A program made the translations under genes and the position numbers. Under the pieces are notes generated by a model that did no database searches, had not been told where the DNA came from, and worked only from the letters and a program-made list of their open reading frames with translations. Of a stretch of 64,000 nucleotides of DNA, positions 3,989 through 50,168 are shown in pieces (position 1 is the stretch's first letter; every line of letters begins with the position of its first letter). The stretch comes from Candidatus Doudnabacteria bacterium RIFCSPHIGHO2_12_FULL_48_16 (lineage in GTDB: Bacteria; Patescibacteriota; Doudnabacteria; UBA920; O2-02-FULL-48-8): assembly GCA_001780035.1 (NCBI GenBank), contig MFEY01000007.1, forward strand, positions 331,146-395,145, read 5' to 3'.

Positions 3989-4216
3989 ATGACTCCTGAC
4001 ATTTACCAACCCACCACTCTCGGCCATACGATTTTGGCTTTGGCGTTTTACGTTTTGATGGCTGGGTTTGTGATTTACAGCCTCGTGGCGCTTTATTCGC
4101 TGCTGCGGTTTGGTCGCTCCATGATTCTTGCCATTATCGTCGCGCTGCTCTACCTAATTATCTCGGCCAGCCTCTACGCGGCGGCCGTCGGCAATCTTAA
4201 CGGCATTAAGTTTTAG
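3989..4216 (+). CDS. Small hydrophobic membrane protein (hypothetical)
   Basis: In-frame ATG 8 nt after the ruvB stop. 75 aa with two predicted transmembrane helices (MTPDIYQPTTLGHTILALAFYVLMAGFVIYSLV...). Confidence 0.4.
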   Translation: MTPDIYQPTTLGHTILALAFYVLMAGFVIYSLVALYSLLRFGRSMILAIIVALLYLIISASLYAAAVGNLNGIKF

Positions 4217-4222
4217 AATCCT

Positions 4223-4792
4223 ATGTATTGGCCGAAGTTCAAACGAACCATTATGTTTCCGGGGCAGCAAGCCGACGAAGAAGTGCTGCTCGTGGTACGC
4301 GAGCACTGGCTGGTTTTTCTAACCAAGCTGCTGGCTTGGCTGATGTTCGCCGCTTTTTTAATGCTCGGTGATTGGGCGATCAATGTTTACGCCCCGGTCC
4401 TTAATACCGCCCCTTATCTTGGCTACGTCAATCTGCTTAAAAGCATCTACTTGATGTTTCTCGTACTCGGCCTGCTAATCCTCTGGGTCATGTATTATCT
4501 CAATATTCAGATTGTGACCAACCAGCGAATCGTGGATATTACCCAGCGCTCGCTCATCCACCATACGATTTCGGAATTGCATCTGAGCCGGATCGAGGAT
4601 GTGACGGCGGAAGTTTCCGGCATCTTTGGCACCTTCCTCGACTACGGCAACGTCTACATCCAGACCGCGGGCGAAACCGAACGGTTTACCTTTAACAAAG
4701 TCCCCAACCCGCAGCGGATCGAAAAAATGATCCTCGATCTTTACGAACAGCTGCCGGAAGACCTCAGGGGCCACCCCCACGAAAAAAAATAA
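4223..4792 (+). CDS. Membrane protein with bacterial PH (bPH_2 / YdbS-like, DUF304) domain
   Basis: N-terminal transmembrane hairpin followed by ...GTFLDYGNVYIQTAGETERFTFNKVPNPQRIEKMI, a typical bPH_2 fold signature. Confidence 0.55.
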   Translation: MYWPKFKRTIMFPGQQADEEVLLVVREHWLVFLTKLLAWLMFAAFLMLGDWAINVYAPVLNTAPYLGYVNLLKSIYLMFLVLGLLILWVMYYLNIQIVTNQRIVDITQRSLIHHTISELHLSRIEDVTAEVSGIFGTFLDYGNVYIQTAGETERFTFNKVPNPQRIEKMILDLYEQLPEDLRGHPHEKK

Positions 4793-19392: not shown

Positions 19393-19420
19393 CCCCCTCT
19401 TATATTAAGAGGGGGTTTTA
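19393..19420 (+). terminator. tyrS intrinsic terminator (CCCCCTCTTA-tat-TAAGAGGGGG + TTTTA), followed by a second similar hairpin at 19437-19457
   Basis: 10-bp GC-rich stem with a T-run, 31 nt after the tyrS stop. Confidence 0.6.
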
Positions 19421-19471
19421 GATTGCTTATTTACTCCTCCCCTTAGAATAAGGGGAGGGTGGGAGGGGTTA

Positions 19472-19500
19472 TTGACCTTGGGTCTTAAAACTGCTATCTT
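19472..19500 (+). promoter_or_regulatory. Sigma-70-like promoter candidate (TTGACC-17-TATCTT) driving the GC-rich island
   Basis: TTGACC at 19472, a 17-nt spacer, then TATCTT at 19495. Confidence 0.4.
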
Positions 19501-19561
19501 AATGAGCTTACTTGACCGGGCGAATCCGGTCCGTATGGCGACGAAAGGCAGCAGGGGGAAA

Positions 19562-19826
19562 AATGAAGAACGCAGGAGCAAAGCGACAGACCGGTGGCGA
19601 GAGCGGAACCGATCGGCCATCGCGTCGCCGCACGCCGACCGAGCGCATGCCGACGCGGGAGCCGGGCACGGGCGGCGACGCGGATGACCAGGGCGGTCAG
19701 TCCGATCGCCCGGCGTGGGACACGCCGACCGACCGCTTGCCCACGAGCGACCCGCCGCCGGCCGATGAAGCGGATACGGCCGACGCGGCGCCCGATCGCG
19801 GACAGGCCACCACGGCGATCGCGTAG
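19562..19826 (+). CDS. Hypothetical intrinsically disordered, Pro/Asp/Arg/Thr-rich small protein inside a ~70% GC island
   Basis: 87-aa ORF MKNAGAKRQTGGESGTDRPSRRRTPTERMPTREPG...PTDRLPTSDPPPADEADTADAAPDRGQATTAIA. It has a GGGGG Shine-Dalgarno 5 nt upstream, its own promoter and its own terminator. Coding status is uncertain, because all three forward frames are open. Confidence 0.3.
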
Positions 19827-19917
19827 AACGCGACGCGGACAACCAGATGGACCGGGTGTGCAGTGACAGTGCACATCCCGGTCTTTTTTTATTCCGACCT
19901 CGACAAAGTCGAGCGTC

Positions 19918-32131: not shown

Positions 32132-32161
32132 GGCGTCATGGCCGAGCGGTTAGGCAGAGGT
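32132..32161 (+). other. 5' half of a second tRNA-Cys-like gene (acceptor GGCGTCA + D-arm), separated from its 3' half
   Basis: GGCGTCATGGCCGAGCGGTTAGGCAGAGGT: the D-arm and anticodon-stem 5' strand are identical to tRNA-Cys at 32213. The acceptor strand pairs perfectly with TGACGCC at 32334. Confidence 0.4.
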
Positions 32162-32212
32162 TAAGTCTGCCCCGACGCTTCGGCCGGGGTTCCGACCCAA
32201 AATTTTGGACTT

Positions 32213-32286
32213 GGTCTGGTGGCCGAGCGGTTAGGCAGAGGTCTGCAAAACCTCGTACACCGGTTCAACTCCGGTCCAGACCTCCA
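32213..32286 (+). tRNA. tRNA-Cys (GCA), CCA-encoded
   Basis: Manual cloverleaf: acceptor GGTCTGG/CCAGACC, anticodon arm GAGGT-CTGCAAA-ACCTC, T-arm ACCGG-TTCAACT-CCGGT, discriminator U73 and CCA. Confidence 0.8.
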
Positions 32287-32307
32287 AAATTTTGGCGTCG
32301 GAACAAA

Positions 32308-32344
32308 ACCTCGTACACCGGTTCAACTCCGGTTGACGCCTCCA
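32308..32344 (+). other. 3' half of the second tRNA-Cys-like gene (anticodon-stem 3' strand, T-arm, acceptor TGACGCC, U73, CCA)
   Basis: ACCTCGTACACCGGTTCAACTCCGGTTGACGCCTCCA is identical to tRNA-Cys positions 39-65, followed by an acceptor strand complementary to 32132-32138. Confidence 0.4.
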
Positions 32345-41027: not shown

Positions 41028-41393
41028 CTAATTCGACTCGGAAGCGTTTATCGGGCTCTTGGGTTCGGCCATCTTACAGGCGCCGGAAAAGTAAGCGCCT
41101 TCGCGTATGCCTAAGGAAGCGCAGCTGACATTGCCGACAATTTTGCCGGTTTCCAAAATTACCAGCGCGCCTTTGACCATGACGTTGCCTTTGACTGCGC
41201 CAGCCACGGTGGCATTGCCCGCAATCAAATCGGCATCAATCTGGGCGTTGGGGCCGATGATCAGATCCTGCGCGGTCTGGACTTTGCCGTTGACGATCCC
41301 GTCGATTTTGATATTGCCGGCGCTTTTGAGTTCCCCCTCGATCCGCATGGAGGAGGAAACAATGGTCTCGGCGAATTCTTGTATCTTGGCCAT
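41028..41393 (-). CDS. Bactofilin (polymer-forming cytoskeletal protein)
   Basis: 121 aa of beta-helical bactofilin repeats: IEGELKSAGNIKIDGIVNGKVQTAQDLIIGPNAQIDADLIAGNATVAGAVKGNV. Confidence 0.75.
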   Translation of the reverse strand: MAKIQEFAETIVSSSMRIEGELKSAGNIKIDGIVNGKVQTAQDLIIGPNAQIDADLIAGNATVAGAVKGNVMVKGALVILETGKIVGNVSCASLGIREGAYFSGACKMAEPKSPINASESN

Positions 41394-45385: not shown

Positions 45386-46847
45386 TTAAAATTTCATGCT
45401 GTAGGTTTGGCAAAGCCGCGAGTAATCCCAGCACGACAAACAGCATGAGTCTCCCCTGCTGAATTGTAACAAAATAATGATCAAACTGTCCCAGGATCAA
45501 AAAAATCAATCCTAGAAAGATCAGGGAAAATTTAAGCGGCCCAACTGGGCCATGCCGCGCGCCGCGGAAAATTTGGATGATGATCAGGACAAAAATAGCC
45601 AAAGCTCCGACACCGGATTCCGCCGCAATGAAAATAAAAATATTATGGGCCGGTTGGTATTGCCAGGCCTTCAAAGCATACAGATCCCGCAGTGCCGGCA
45701 CGTAGTTCCCTACCCCTACCCCCAGCCAGGGATGTTGGGCCACCAAGTTTAACCCTAGGTCATTGAAGAATCCACGGTCTGTAATGGAGGTTTGATTCTG
45801 ATCCAAAACCCGGGTTTTGAGTAGCTCAAAATAAGTTCCATCCGCCTTCGTTAAAACTCCGGCGGACAGGCATGAAACAATGCCAATAATGGCTAAGATA
45901 AGCGATTTTTTCCATTGTTTGTGCCAGAGCCAATAGATGCCAAAGCCCAAATATCCGATGGCCGTGGCCAACCAGGCTAGCCGGGAAAAAGTCACAAAGA
46001 TTCCGAGCGTGATTAAGATCGTTCCACATGAAACCAAGAATAGCCTTAGTTTTGTTTCACGCCTGCCCGCCGAAGCCTCGGCGAAGGCGGATGAAACCAA
46101 AAAAAAGCCCATAAATAAGGCAAAAATCAGGAAAGACGCTAAAACATTGGGGTGTGGGAATGTTCCGTAAGCCCGAATAACCTTCCCTCCCAGAGTATCG
46201 ATCGTGGCTAATCCCGTCGTTCCCAGCGGCGGGATATATTCCCCAAGGAATTTCAGGCCAAGCATATGTTGCACGTGAAACTGCCAGAGAGCCAAAATCG
46301 CCTGGGTAACCCCTAATATAAATAGTATAGTGGCTGAAAGCCGGAACTGAATTGTTTCACGGAATGTTTCACGGAGGTAAATTAGCAGTAATAATAGCTC
46401 AAACCATTTAAAAACCCCGTAAATCCCCAGTTTTATTTGTTTCACGTGGAACACCGAGACTACAACCCAGAGAAATAACCCCAATAATAGCCAGAGTTTG
46501 CTGGTCAGGCTAATTCGAGGGCGCTCAAAAACCAGCCAGCTTAAGAAACACAAAATTAAGATTAAATCAGTCAGATAAACAAAGATGGCCAGGTGGTAAT
46601 TGAAATACCAGGAGATATATGATTGGGCCGGATTATAAAGCATCCGGGTTTGAATGGGCAGCAATAATAGGAATAAATAAAAGAAAACTTCATGAAACCG
46701 AAGTTTCATAAGCCAAGCTGATAAATGTTTCACGCCTGCCCGCCACGCCGCATTTTCTAGAAAATTTAAAAATTGTTTCACGTGAAACATAAATTTTTGG
46801 CTAATATTATTGATAAAAGGCAAGGCAGGCGGGTGAAACATTGACAT
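45372..46847 (-). CDS. O-antigen ligase / Wzy-like polytopic membrane protein (paralog of 14385-15587). 5' third is motif-laden.
   Basis: 491 aa with 10-12 transmembrane helices and the motif ...TFSRLAWLATAIGYLGFGIYWLW. The extent of the true coding 5' end is uncertain; see findings. Confidence 0.5.
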   Translation of the reverse strand: MSMFHPPALPFINNISQKFMFHVKQFLNFLENAAWRAGVKHLSAWLMKLRFHEVFFYLFLLLLPIQTRMLYNPAQSYISWYFNYHLAIFVYLTDLILILCFLSWLVFERPRISLTSKLWLLLGLFLWVVVSVFHVKQIKLGIYGVFKWFELLLLLIYLRETFRETIQFRLSATILFILGVTQAILALWQFHVQHMLGLKFLGEYIPPLGTTGLATIDTLGGKVIRAYGTFPHPNVLASFLIFALFMGFFLVSSAFAEASAGRRETKLRLFLVSCGTILITLGIFVTFSRLAWLATAIGYLGFGIYWLWHKQWKKSLILAIIGIVSCLSAGVLTKADGTYFELLKTRVLDQNQTSITDRGFFNDLGLNLVAQHPWLGVGVGNYVPALRDLYALKAWQYQPAHNIFIFIAAESGVGALAIFVLIIIQIFRGARHGPVGPLKFSLIFLGLIFLILGQFDHYFVTIQQGRLMLFVVLGLLAALPNLQHEILNDKL

Positions 46848-46938
46848 ATTGAATAATTTATTTTTTAATAAAAATATGAATTTACATTTTGAGTTTCTGC
46901 TTTTTCAAGATATCATGGAACGTAAGAGGAGGTAACCC

Positions 46939-47187
46939 ATGACGCCAAGAATCGTCGTGGCCAAGGGAGCGGGGTTGATCCGGCAATACGCGCAGCTGCG
47001 TTCCCGCTGGGATCGTGAAGCCTGGCTTGCCAAGGCTGAGCGGGCCGTCAGCTTGTGCACAAGAGATGAAGAAGAAAGGCTCCTGGCCATGATCCGTCTC
47101 ACGCAATATGCGCTGGGACAGGGGAGCCCTTACCCGGATAATAAAGAAGGAGGAGACCATGGGACGAAGGGAGGAGGTTCTCGCTGA
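46939..47187 (+). CDS. Hypothetical 82-aa protein in a GC-rich patch
   Basis: Strong AGGAGGT Shine-Dalgarno 6 nt upstream: MTPRIVVAKGAGLIRQYAQLRSRWDREAWLAKAER.... Confidence 0.4.
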   Translation: MTPRIVVAKGAGLIRQYAQLRSRWDREAWLAKAERAVSLCTRDEEERLLAMIRLTQYALGQGSPYPDNKEGGDHGTKGGGSR

Positions 47188-47413
47188 TGCAATTGCGGCG
47201 CTTAATCGAGCCGCCTGGGCTCTGAATGAGCCTTGGTCAGAGCAGAGTGCGCGCCGCAATCAGGACACTCTCGCCGCCATTTGTCGCGCCTTGCCGTATT
47301 GTCAAGGGCAGTGGTCGAGCCGCTTGCCTGGCCATTTCCAGGCCGCGGCCGAGGCTATGAAACAAAAGCTTCTGGCGCGCTTGGCCCAGCCGGGGACACT
47401 CAAGGAGCGTTGA
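47159..47413 (+). CDS. Hypothetical 84-aa protein, overlapping the previous ORF out of frame
   Basis: AAGGAGGAG Shine-Dalgarno immediately before the ATG: MGRREEVLADAIAALNRAAWALNEPWSEQSARRNQDTLAAICRALPYC.... Confidence 0.4.
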   Translation: MGRREEVLADAIAALNRAAWALNEPWSEQSARRNQDTLAAICRALPYCQGQWSSRLPGHFQAAAEAMKQKLLARLAQPGTLKER

Positions 47414-47560
47414 ATGGTCCACCCAATCGTCGATTGAACGCCAGGTAGTCGGGCCGATAGCCAGATAATAAGGCTATCATCCAACACTGGCGTTCGTTCC
47501 TGCTCTAGAAAACATACGGAGATAAATGTATAATATATGAACTTGAAAATTGTTGAAATA

Positions 47561-47612
47561 CGGGGTGTCGTATACCGGTAGTATGCACGCCACGCCCCCC
47601 ACACCAGTTTTA
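47561..47612 (+). pseudogene. Truncated, divergent copy of the 5' part of tRNA-Pro
   Basis: CGGGGTGTCGTATACCGGTAGTATGCACGC aligns to CGGGATGTAGTATACCGGTAGTACACGCGC of tRNA-Pro(CGG). There is no T-arm or 3' acceptor. Confidence 0.35.
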
Positions 47613-47613
47613 T

Positions 47614-47687
47614 CGGGATGTAGTATACCGGTAGTACACGCGCTTCGGGTGCGTGAAGACCGGGTTCGATTCCCGGCATCCCGACCA
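47614..47687 (+). tRNA. tRNA-Pro (CGG), CCA-encoded
   Basis: Acceptor CGGGATG/CATCCCG, anticodon arm CGCGC-TTCGGGT-GCGTG and T-arm CCGGG-TTCGATT-CCCGG. Confidence 0.8.
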
Positions 47688-47816
47688 AAAGACGCTCGGA
47701 CCTTGCAAAATTACCGGTTGTCGAAATTTAATTAAATTTCGCAACCTGCGTTCTCGACCCGCTTAAAGCGGGTCTGCGAAGGCTAATTTTGCAAGGTCCT
47801 CGCTGAAAGCAATTAT

Positions 47817-49606: not shown

Positions 49607-49743
49607 TTATGGGCTTGGAGAGGTCGCAGATGCCGCCTCCGGCGGCACCCCGCCTTCATTAGAATTAATCGAGGTGGCGGTGGGTGGCCACCGCATTATG
49701 CGGGGTCCCGCCTACGTCTAATAAATAGTAATGGCGGGATCGA

Positions 49744-49989
49744 ATGAGATTTTACGCATATATTCTCAAAAGCCAGAAGCACGGCAGATATTATGTTGGA
49801 TCAACAAATGATCTTCAAGATCGATTGAAAAGACATAACGCCGGTTATAATAAATCAACCAAGGATGGCGTTCCTTGGGAACTAGTCTATAGTGAAACTT
49901 TTTTGACGAAGCAAGAAGCATACAAAAGAGAATTAAAAATAAAAAGTTATAAGGGCGGTGAAGCCTTTAAGCGCTTGATAAATTTATAA
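49744..49989 (+). CDS. GIY-YIG nuclease family protein (single-domain, UPF0213-like)
   Basis: 81 aa: MRFYAYILKSQKHGRYYVGSTNDLQDRLKRHNAG...EAYKRELKIKSYK. Confidence 0.8.
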   Translation: MRFYAYILKSQKHGRYYVGSTNDLQDRLKRHNAGYNKSTKDGVPWELVYSETFLTKQEAYKRELKIKSYKGGEAFKRLINL

Positions 49990-49993
49990 ATAC

Positions 49994-50083
49994 GGAAGCG
50001 TGGCCGAGTGGTTGAAGGCACGGCTCTCGAAAAGCCGCAGAGGTGAAAGCCTCTCGTGAGTTCGAATCTCACCGCTTCCGCCA
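49994..50083 (+). tRNA. tRNA-Ser (CGA), type II, CCA-encoded
   Basis: Acceptor GGAAGCG/CGCTTCC, anticodon arm CGGCT-CTCGAAA-AGCCG, a long variable arm and T-loop TTCGAAT. Confidence 0.85.
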
Positions 50084-50100
50084 AGAAATCAAGCTAGTTC

Positions 50101-50140
50101 GTCCGGTCGAATGACCGGACGCCCGATCGGATGATCGGGC
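50101..50140. repeat. Twin 20-nt hairpins (GTCCGGTC-gaat-GACCGGAC / GCCCGATC-ggat-GATCGGGC) between direct repeats of the tRNA-Ser 3' end
   Basis: Two adjacent hairpins, each an 8-bp stem with a 4-nt loop, bracketed by the 13-nt direct repeat TCCGCCAAGAAAT at 50077 and 50154. Confidence 0.4.
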
Positions 50141-50168
50141 GACTCCCACCCTCTCCGCCAAGAAATTT

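Follow-up and report, generated by a model that had tools for sequence, protein, structure and literature searches.

Partial copies of transfer RNA (tRNA) genes that stand beside intact ones are routinely taken for the scars of phage or genomic island integration. Is this the right reading of a tRNA-Pro locus in a 64-kb stretch of DNA (the window) from a genome of Candidatus Doudnabacteria, members of the candidate phyla radiation (CPR), or Patescibacteria? At this locus two small overlapping open reading frames (ORFs) are followed by a truncated tRNA-Pro and then by an intact tRNA-Pro(CGG), and an earlier note on the sequence (the original prediction) had joined all of these as the remains of a single integrated element. 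Our analysis suggests that such a reading would be wrong here. The region 46833-47687 (window coordinates, + strand unless stated otherwise) probably holds two unrelated things that adjoin one another, a small-gene unit and a decayed tRNA nest. The truncated copy would then be, on balance, the left part of a tRNA-in-tRNA nest, in which the resident tRNA-Pro was broken at the anticodon loop and replaced by a compact cassette via homing-type gene conversion.

The window was compared with related contigs, labeled by L-numbers (L010, L011, L086, etc.), which were gathered via the neighboring Mur ligase gene and via a metagenome scan for a shared tRNA-Pro 5′ motif. The scan listed at least 120 CPR loci, each with a tRNA-Pro, and provided 1.34 Mb of locus sequence. 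The window was assigned to the metagenome-assembled genome GCA_001777705.1 (contig MFEU01000009.1, RIFCSPHIGHO2 series). What is said below about how events were ordered and which way they ran draws on a small number of relatives. Over 1.3 kb (1301 nucleotides, nt) around the locus, 12 of 13 copies from several independent assemblies were 100% identical, and the 13th differed by one single-nucleotide polymorphism; the locus is therefore not an assembly artefact. By the same 1301-nt comparison, the retrievable assemblies all represent one clone and offer no strain polymorphism for a test of coding or of presence and absence.

Composition of the tRNA-Pro locus

The first part of the locus is a remnant of the resident, or outer, tRNA-Pro (47561-47594), consisting of the acceptor 5′ strand, the D arm and the anticodon-stem 5′ strand, which ends at 47590 and is followed by four junction bases, CACG. 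The segment 47561-47590 matched positions 1-30 of a tRNA-Pro profile (nhmmer, expectation value (E) 4.6e-5) and agreed at 25/30 nt with positions 1-30 of the adjacent intact tRNA, with which the remnant forms direct repeats 53 nt apart from start to start. Its agreement with the stand-alone tRNA-Pro(CGG) of L011 was closer, 28/30, or 29/30 if the preceding base is counted. At up to three mismatches the L011 stretch matched nothing else in the window, and no match arose in 100 shuffles. The truncated copy that had been placed at 47561-47612 is thus real, but its tRNA homology stops at approximately 47590-47594, the boundary between the anticodon stem and loop, and the remainder, up to 47613, is spacer.

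The intact, or inner, tRNA-Pro(CGG) begins at 47614, as the original prediction had it, and extends to 47687; ARAGORN and Rfam agree on it, its acceptor strands are CGGGATG/CATCCCG and its CCA is encoded. This cassette-type tRNA is 93-96% identical to the inner tRNAs of nests in two other contigs (68/71 in L086 and 66/71 in L155) versus 85-86% to the stand-alone tRNA-Pro(CGG) genes of the syntenic contigs L010 and L011, which are themselves 93% identical to each other. Because the fragment is nearer to the L011 gene and the intact tRNA is divergent from the genes of both L010 and L011, the fragment is of the resident type and the intact gene is the odd one out. What looks foreign in this region is therefore the intact tRNA and its 19-nt spacer, and not the small genes.

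The spacer, CCCCCCACACCAGTTTTAT (47595-47613), is homologous to arms found at the matching position in L086 (CCCCCCACCATTTTTAT) and L155 (CCCCCACACCAATTCTAC) and represents the left arm of a nest cassette; in the 1.34 Mb of locus sequence the arm motif occurred in those nests and at one unrelated site only. Through the outer 5′ half, the left arm and the inner tRNA, 47561-47687 is colinear with L086 and L155. A right arm complementary to the left one was not found 3′ of the window tRNA-Pro, nor was any copy of the 3′ half of tRNA-Pro found in the 64-kb window. The sequence that follows the tRNA is a flank (47688-47810) starting with (A)AGACGCTCGGAC. In L115 and L067 the un-nested tRNA-Pro is followed by gaaACGCTCGGac and agaACGCTCGGgc, respectively, such that a ACGCTCGG flank directly 3′ of tRNA-Pro is common to the window and these two contigs; the cassette-type tRNA therefore joins the native 3′ flank directly. 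The presence of this flank in the un-nested loci also led us to reject AAAAGA after the tRNA as the stump of a right arm. With an outer 5′ part and a left arm but neither a right arm nor an outer 3′ part, the locus is, as judged from its sequence, a one-sided or decayed nest and not a full member of the class. Its layout indicates that the resident 5′ part survives, that a nest-type arm and tRNA have replaced the rest and that the 3′ flank is native.

The native flank also contains a Y-shaped structure of about 100 nt, located just before an FMN-reductase gene; the structure is closed by a perfect 16-bp stem (47698-47713/47784-47799) and is supported by the inverted repeats I1, I7 and I18 and by the predicted fold. 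Its interior varies between genomes and was unique in all of the sequence compared, for which reason it was rejected as a repeated mobile element. No Rfam family matched 47698-47799, and the structure might act in termination or in processing, or might belong to a leader RNA.

Nested tRNA genes in other CPR contigs and elsewhere in the window

Partial tRNA-Pro pieces flanking a complete tRNA-Pro were detected with the tRNA-Pro profile in approximately 15 of the 120 CPR loci among those listed. The best-preserved nests (L086, L155, L072 and L160) consist of an outer 5′ half, a left arm, a complete inner tRNA-Pro, a complementary right arm and an outer 3′ half; the inner tRNA-Pro(CGG) sits within the anticodon loop of the second tRNA-Pro. 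Decayed or multi-layered forms were seen in L064, L109, L142, L151, L059 and L150. The contigs that are syntenic with the window (L010, L011, L061, L067 and L115) carry no nest at tRNA-Pro, while the neighborhood of L086 differs, with pilus assembly genes, and no homologues of the genes that neighbor the window locus were found in L086 or L155. No outer tRNA was called by ARAGORN with introns allowed, and brute-force joining of the outer halves was discarded as uninformative, because ARAGORN accepted too many junctions. The nested layout recurs in CPR bacteria and appears to be undescribed, as a full-text literature search found no description of a tRNA nested inside a tRNA.

Two further nests lie in the window itself. 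The first, at 32132-32344, is a complete nest of tRNA-Cys(GCA), which possesses all four nest features. Its outer 5′ part (32132-32161) and outer 3′ part (32304-32344) enclose a left insert (32162-32212), an inner tRNA-Cys (32213-32286) and a right insert (32287-32303), and the whole is predicted to fold as a double cloverleaf, with a free energy of -108.3 kcal/mol and a z score of -7.35. The single tRNA-Cys of L011 matches the outer parts at 100% over its positions 1-30 and at 95% over positions 34-74, and its positions 8-63 match the inner tRNA-Cys at 96%. The inner acceptor stem differs from the outer one at 5 of 7 pairs, all of them still paired, while the D, anticodon and T arms are identical in the two, and complementary arms flank the inner gene.

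The second case, at 49617-50160, is a probable nest of tRNA-Ser, for which the evidence is weaker than for the tRNA-Cys and tRNA-Pro loci. Two remnants, GGAGAGGTCGC (49617-49627) and CCCACCCTCTCCGCCA (50145-50160), resemble the ends of a tRNA-Ser with another acceptor type, with GC-rich hairpins in between; they enclose a GIY-YIG ORF (49744-49989, 81 amino acids) and an intact tRNA-Ser(CGA) (49994-50083). The 3′ piece contains a 14-nt exact match to the 3′ end of a GGAGAGG-type tRNA-Ser (E 0.016), and L011 carries the same GGAGAGGTCGC 12 nt upstream of its own tRNA-Ser.

Several other arrangements were noted in the comparison contigs. The outer tRNA-Pro of L155 (12497-12585) carries an 85-nt structured insert between positions 26 and 27, and further inserts in outer genes whose stems are still paired lie in the D-loop in L151 and, with a length of about 50 nt, in the T-loop in L064 and L070. 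In L150 (oriented 1488-1623) a third tRNA start comes after two tRNA-Pro 5′ pieces that are spaced by 52 nt and that each have a complete anticodon-like arm with compensatory changes; this looks like nesting within nesting, and the contig ends before the structure is complete. In other loci, tRNA-Ile and tRNA-Phe too have nest-like fragments on their flanks. Small, similar hairpin inserts whose ends are conserved (CCCGTAGT, then the hairpin, then ACTAY) were seen just 3′ of tRNA-Cys in L010 and in the outer tRNA-Ile of L068, in both cases at the apparent position 35/36, that is, in two tRNA types and two lineages, and may be a small intron-like or mobile hairpin element. Finally, in L116 (oriented 2550-2650) a degenerate tRNA-Phe with two CCCGCAGAGCGGG hairpins lies directly upstream of an intact tRNA-Phe, and a GIY-YIG gene adjoins.

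Endonuclease genes and the proposed replacement of the resident tRNA

Small putative endonuclease genes are found beside tRNA genes in these genomes. Eight of the 12 GIY-YIG copies in the window and the compared loci are followed, after 8-190 nt, by a co-oriented tRNA gene, and one more copy is about 110 nt away from such a gene, a count that is biased by the choice of the loci for their tRNA-Pro content; the tRNA-Ser and tRNA-Cys cases are free of that bias. In L159 a duplicated 22-nt tRNA-Pro 5′ piece brackets a GIY-YIG ORF, and in L060 (oriented 4212-4700) a 41-nt tRNA-Pro 5′ piece and a complete tRNA flank an ORF whose HNH-type CxxCH motif was recognized by eye only. An endonuclease gene is thus located at or inside the nest at the window tRNA-Ser (GIY-YIG), in L159 (GIY-YIG) and probably in L060 (HNH-type motif). 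The GIY-YIG proteins are about 80 amino acids long, lack a recognizable DNA-binding domain and show weak similarity to homing-endonuclease models.

We propose that the cassette that entered the tRNA-Pro locus comprised the 19-nt arm and a complete variant tRNA-Pro(CGG), and that the resident gene survives as its first ~30 nt and the four junction bases. The source would have been a donor allele that already bore a nest and that converted the resident gene in a homing-type event. The left crossover may have occurred in the conserved D-arm/anticodon-stem region of the outer 5′ half and the right crossover at the very 3′ terminus of the inner tRNA, where this is homologous to the end of the resident gene; a right crossover at this point would explain why there is no 3′ remnant and why the cassette tRNA runs into the native flank. 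Equivalently, a full nest may have been acquired first, and recombination of one 3′ end with the other may later have removed the right arm together with the outer 3′ half. The event was likely driven by a small free-standing homing-endonuclease gene (GIY-YIG, sometimes HNH) of the kind that lies beside tRNA genes. Viability of the host would be secured by the replacement tRNA instead of by splicing, and the altered stems may give the cassette immunity.

At present, a putative promoter, TAGAAA-17-TATAAT (47506-47534, 10/12 consensus matches), is placed such that it could transcribe the remnant, the arm and the tRNA jointly. RNase P would cut at 47614, whereupon the remnant and arm would be discarded as a leader and the cassette tRNA would serve as the working tRNA-Pro(CGG). 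All of this is inferred: which way the event ran, where the crossovers fell, what part the endonuclease played and how RNase P processes the transcript.

Besides the selection bias just mentioned, several observations weigh against this proposal. The tRNA-Pro nest has no adjoining endonuclease gene: no GIY-YIG or HNH gene was found between 47561 and 47687, and the nearest GIY-YIG gene is 2.1 kb away, at tRNA-Ser. Furthermore, stand-alone tRNA-Pro(CGG) genes of the CGGGATG type exist in numerous CPR contigs, two of them (L138 and L054) loosely syntenic, and the cassette tRNA could therefore belong to an old paralogous lineage and not be an import. Without exception, the inverted-repeat arms of a nest are complementary to each other, and they covary from family to family, which a purely selfish DNA model leaves unexplained. 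Finally, all acceptor and T-stem pairs (48/48) are kept in the four intact outer genes, whose stems differ, with compensation, among themselves and from those of the inner tRNAs, which hints at RNA-level constraint on the outer gene.

Alternative origins of the nest

A first alternative is that the nest is old and vertically inherited in a wider CPR clade, and has repeatedly been resolved to a single tRNA by recombination between its direct repeats, with no need of homing or of a nuclease. The arms and outer genes of L086 and L155 have diverged to about the same degree, direct repeats 50-150 nt apart would readily recombine, and the right side of the window locus, where the tRNA runs into the native flank, resembles such a resolution. 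However, the five syntenic Doudnabacteria contigs bear no trace of a nest at tRNA-Pro, and the window combines a remnant of the Doudnabacteria type with an arm and inner tRNA of the L086/L155 type, which come from another gene context. Endonuclease genes also lie inside or beside some of the nests. We regard purely vertical descent as unlikely.

A second alternative is that the nest is functional, in that the outer gene encodes a scaffold tRNA or one with an intron, the "intron" being a second tRNA. The inner tRNA would be released by RNase P and RNase Z, and the outer halves would be ligated or would aid processing. The remnant in the window would then be degenerate or a still useful leader. 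Much in the best-preserved nests is consistent with this: the complete acceptor and T-stem pairing of the intact outer genes involves six compensated positions, left and right arms invariably pair and show covariation between L086 and L155, and the predicted double cloverleaves are far more stable than shuffled sequences (z -5.45 for L086, -5.63 for L072). Removal of the insert leaves a plausible UGG anticodon loop in L086 (CTTG/GGT) and L072 (TTTGGG/T), and the outer genes of L086 and L155 resemble the tRNA-Pro(UGG) member of the usual UGG-CGG-GGG cluster. Further hairpin inserts occupy loops of outer genes whose stems are intact (L155, L068, L064 and L070), and Patescibacteria are rich in tRNA introns at position 35/36 (PMC13011429).

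Nevertheless, a route by which the outer tRNA might mature is difficult to recognize. Rfam searches gave no group I intron signature, whether at the gathering score or at E up to 10, and an intron of that kind would not fit into inserts of this length. No bulge-helix-bulge, with its two 3-nt bulges on either side of a 4-bp helix, was seen by inspection of the predicted folds, a dedicated motif search not having been made; in the fold predicted for L086, likewise judged by inspection only, the arm helix extends the outer anticodon stem, with bulges of 1 and 2 nt, and the window has no 3′ junction to compare. After cuts by RNase P and RNase Z the arms would still be attached, and no anticodon would result. 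Outer genes are clearly decayed at the window tRNA-Pro locus and in L109, L142, L151, L059 and L150, the tRNA-Cys nest has the same anticodon in both of its tRNAs, with a 5-nt disruption beside the loop of the outer one, and the window tRNA-Pro has neither a right arm nor an outer 3′ half. We therefore give a functional nest little credence. Its most explicit version, that the outer and inner tRNAs are co-transcribed as a double cloverleaf, that RNase P and RNase Z free the inner tRNA and that the arms hold the outer halves for trimming and ligation, to give two working tRNAs per locus, is a reading that we find very unlikely. Were it to hold, the nests would be a bacterial kind of disrupted tRNA gene, L086, L155 and L072 would each yield tRNA-Pro(UGG) and tRNA-Pro(CGG), the window tRNA-Pro locus would have lost its outer gene, and the tRNA-Cys locus would be a live example.

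A local tandem duplication of tRNA-Pro, by slippage or unequal crossing-over, after which the upstream copy lost its 3′ part and drifted, might be expected from direct repeats only 53 nt apart and from the frequency of tandem tRNA-Pro genes in these CPR contigs. We nonetheless consider it improbable, because the fragment is nearer to the L011 tRNA (28/30) than to its own neighbor (25/30), the opposite of what a recent local duplicate would show, because nests in two unrelated contigs have a left arm that is homologous to the 19-nt spacer, and because the sequence that flanks the repeat unit is not repeated on either side.

The small-gene unit and the case for an integrated element

The two small genes on which the idea of an integrated element depended are present as described: ORF1 (46939-47187, 82 amino acids) and ORF2 (47159-47413, 84 amino acids) overlap by 29 nt in different frames. 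ORF2 has an alternative ATG at 47108, which would make it 101 amino acids long. Each is preceded, a few bases upstream of its ATG, by a Shine-Dalgarno (SD) sequence, AGGAGGT (46927-46933) for ORF1 and AAGGAGGAG (47147-47155) for ORF2. These sites are indeed unusual, in that an SD match of at least 5 nt near any candidate start was found for 4 of the 53 long ORFs of the window, and strong SD sites occur almost only ahead of small ORFs. As side observations, strong SD sites precede ORFs of 42-108 amino acids at, for example, 43346, 43671, 13511(-), 20652(-) and 54758(-), AGGAGG occurs 17 times on the + strand of the window and once on the - strand, and AGGAGGAAACAATG occurs twice, at 41351 and 43346.

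The two proteins are predicted to be small helical bundles without recognizable relatives. Single-sequence AlphaFold models gave a putative three-helix bundle with a disordered tail for ORF1 (predicted local distance difference test (pLDDT) 72) and a similar putative three-helix bundle for ORF2 (pLDDT 77, predicted template-modeling score 0.63). Homology searches returned only self-matches among 5.8e9 proteins, and an exhaustive search of 1.84e9 representatives added a single match, P0003, which is a spurious tandem-repeat translation. Comparisons of ORF1 and ORF2 with Pfam, PHROGs, NCBIfam and PADLOC were empty or far below threshold, and a Foldseek search of the PDB with the ORF2 model returned nothing below E 0.2, only generic helical bundles. 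A type II toxin-antitoxin pair was considered and rejected, given that no toxin or antitoxin family or fold was found in Pfam, NCBIfam, PADLOC or PHROGs, that the models are generic three-helix bundles and that relatives have a single ORF in this slot. The possibility that the GC-rich patch is a structured RNA was likewise rejected, as Rfam gave tRNA only, at gathering scores and at E up to 10.

Sequence elements at both ends suggest that the two ORFs form a unit. Upstream of ORF1, GTGAAACA is followed by TTGACA, a -35-like hexamer (46833-46846; inverted repeats I4/I5), and is likely the operator and promoter of the small-gene unit. It is the last member of a cluster of TGTTTCAC/GTGAAACA palindromes (46692-46846), divergent from the Wzy gene. 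The cluster, which looks like a transcription-factor operator, lies between or overlaps the start of the Wzy ORF and the small-gene promoter, and includes a perfect 16-bp palindrome, TGTTTCACGTGAAACA (46774-46789). At the equivalent place L010 has the same sequence, GTGAAACATTGACA, and L067 a one-base variant, GTGTAACATTGACA; in L011 both GTGAAACA and TTGACA are present, about 56 nt apart. On the 3′ side of ORF2 lies a compound hairpin (47432-47499; -32.7 kcal/mol, z -3.1) without a U-tract, which is probably the 3′ end or a stabilizer hairpin of the small-gene transcript; the 9-bp inverted repeat noted earlier (I17, 47436-47444/47487-47495) forms its base. At the 3′ end of the counterparts in L061, L067 and L010 there is a hairpin with a T-run after it, and an apparent likeness between the hairpins that follow the ORFs in the window and in L011 was dropped as a visual impression that BLAST did not support. 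The unit would thus comprise an operator-like palindrome and promoter, two translationally coupled predicted proteins and a closing hairpin.

The same slot, between the Wzy gene and tRNA-Pro, is filled in related genomes as well. It holds an 86-amino acid ORF behind AAAGGAGGG in L011, an ORF of about 80 amino acids behind AAGGAGGGGG in L067, two or three short ORFs behind GGAGGGAGG or AGGAGG in L115, and, in L061, an ORF of about 62 amino acids with a ribosome-binding site weaker than the strong ones of the other three. In L010 the slot is a 245-nt spacer that retains no more than a ribosome-binding site and a terminator hairpin. Pairwise similarity among these positional small ORFs was not significant; a weak [KE]AW[LI] motif is common to ORF1 and its counterparts in L061 and L067. 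Because small ORFs fill the slot in relatives, the upstream motif is common to them and no integrase lies within 10 kb, we consider ORF1 and ORF2 to be the form that a resident small-gene unit, conserved in position but evolving fast, takes in this genome, and not the cargo of a mobile element.

The original prediction was of a phage- or plasmid-derived element integrated at tRNA-Pro, with ORF1 and ORF2 as what is left of its cargo; we weighed it with a tyrosine or serine integrase as the agent and the partial copy as an attachment (att) site. In its favor are the partial tRNA copy that adjoins an intact tRNA, the ORFs, which lack relatives, are GC-richer than their neighbors and have atypically strong SD sites, and L010, which has neither the ORFs nor the partial copy. 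The GC-rich patch exists (0.57-0.63 versus a window mean of 0.48), but it deviates by only about +1.9 standard deviations, 20 other stretches of the window reach at least 0.57, and its GC of 0.61 is within the normal spread of the window. An empty site was found in relatives with respect to the tRNA (L010, L011, L061, L067 and L115 have no partial copy) but not with respect to the small genes, since four of these contigs have small ORFs with a ribosome-binding site in the slot and L010 has the vestige of one. Moreover, the upstream promoter/operator motif is common to L010 and, with one change, to L067. An integrase-mediated event is highly improbable, as the duplicated part is the 5′ half of the tRNA, only 19 nt separate it from the intact gene and no element lies between the two repeats, the other att copy is missing in that no 3′-half copy exists in the 64-kb window, no integrase or recombinase is found among the called genes and Pfam matches within 10 kb on each side, and neither tRNA type was matched in viral contigs; what stands of the earlier interpretation is that the partial copy is the scar of an insertion or replacement at tRNA-Pro.

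Relation to known systems

Prophages and islands that target tRNA genes span kilobases and encode an integrase; of the tRNA they import only the 3′ part, and the displaced 3′ fragment remains at their far end. The anticodon loop is one of their classical crossover sublocations. An article by Williams of 2002 in NAR is reportedly an example source on such tRNA-gene-targeting integrative elements and their attL/attR duplication. Like these elements, the nest targets a tRNA gene at the anticodon loop, the incoming DNA restores function and a partial copy is left behind. Unlike them, the leftover in the window is a 5′ half only 19 nt away, the incoming DNA is about 90 nt long (an arm and a whole tRNA) and there is no integrase.

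The nests also recall the group I introns of Patescibacteria tRNA genes, which are enriched at position 35/36 of the anticodon loop (PMC13011429). The phylum and the kind of target are the same, homing endonuclease genes are sometimes associated, and the apparent position is 35/36 in the tRNA-Cys nest, the tRNA-Ile of L068 and the tRNA-Pro nests of L086 and L155. They differ from group I introns in that no ribozyme is detectable, the inserts are 90-150 nt long and consist mainly of a complete tRNA, and rescue would come from the carried tRNA instead of from self-splicing. At the window tRNA-Pro locus, which lacks a 3′ exon, the Rfam model Intron_gpI gave no match at the gathering score or at E up to 10.

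In Archaea and algae, multi-intron, split and permuted tRNAs are processed via bulge-helix-bulge motifs (PMC3218864, PMC4390854, PMC3978253). With these the nests share genes in pieces, inserts in the anticodon, D and T loops and long helices that join the halves; they depart from them in having as the insert a tRNA of the same identity, in their bacterial hosts and in the decay of many of the outer genes. No tRNA splicing endonuclease of this kind is known from bacteria.

A further parallel to the proposed replacement is the "intronless homing" of the free-standing homing endonucleases found in phage tRNA clusters, such as T4 SegB, the subject of PMC13096335. Small GIY-YIG genes beside or between tRNA genes and partial tRNA duplications are common to both, and in our model, as in these phages, a sensitive allele would be cut and repaired from a nuclease-linked resistant allele. 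Unlike in phages, the nests lie in cellular CPR genomes and have no match in viral contigs, the putative nucleases are only about 80 amino acids long and the resistant copy is nested in the disrupted target.

Our studies suggest that in these CPR genomes a complete variant tRNA, sometimes together with a small homing-endonuclease gene, is placed inside a resident gene of the same identity, and that this is frequent, with three loci in one 64-kb window and approximately one in eight of the sampled tRNA-Pro loci. If the homing model is true, the nest would represent a selfish element whose host survives not through splicing but because the element brings its own spare copy of the target, and it would provide a route for tRNA alleles between CPR lineages. 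If, on the other hand, the outer genes are functional, they would constitute an unrecognized mode of bacterial tRNA gene organization. For annotation, the consequence is that tRNA finders report the inner gene only and island finders may call false integration sites.

A GC-rich segment between TyrRS and RuvC

The GC content of the window peaks, with values of up to 0.72, in 19400-19900, between the TyrRS and RuvC genes, where Rfam gave no convincing match. Two hairpins are followed there by an ORF (ATG at 19564, to 19826) and by a clean terminator at approximately 19850-19890; the ORF probably encodes a small, highly charged, disordered protein.

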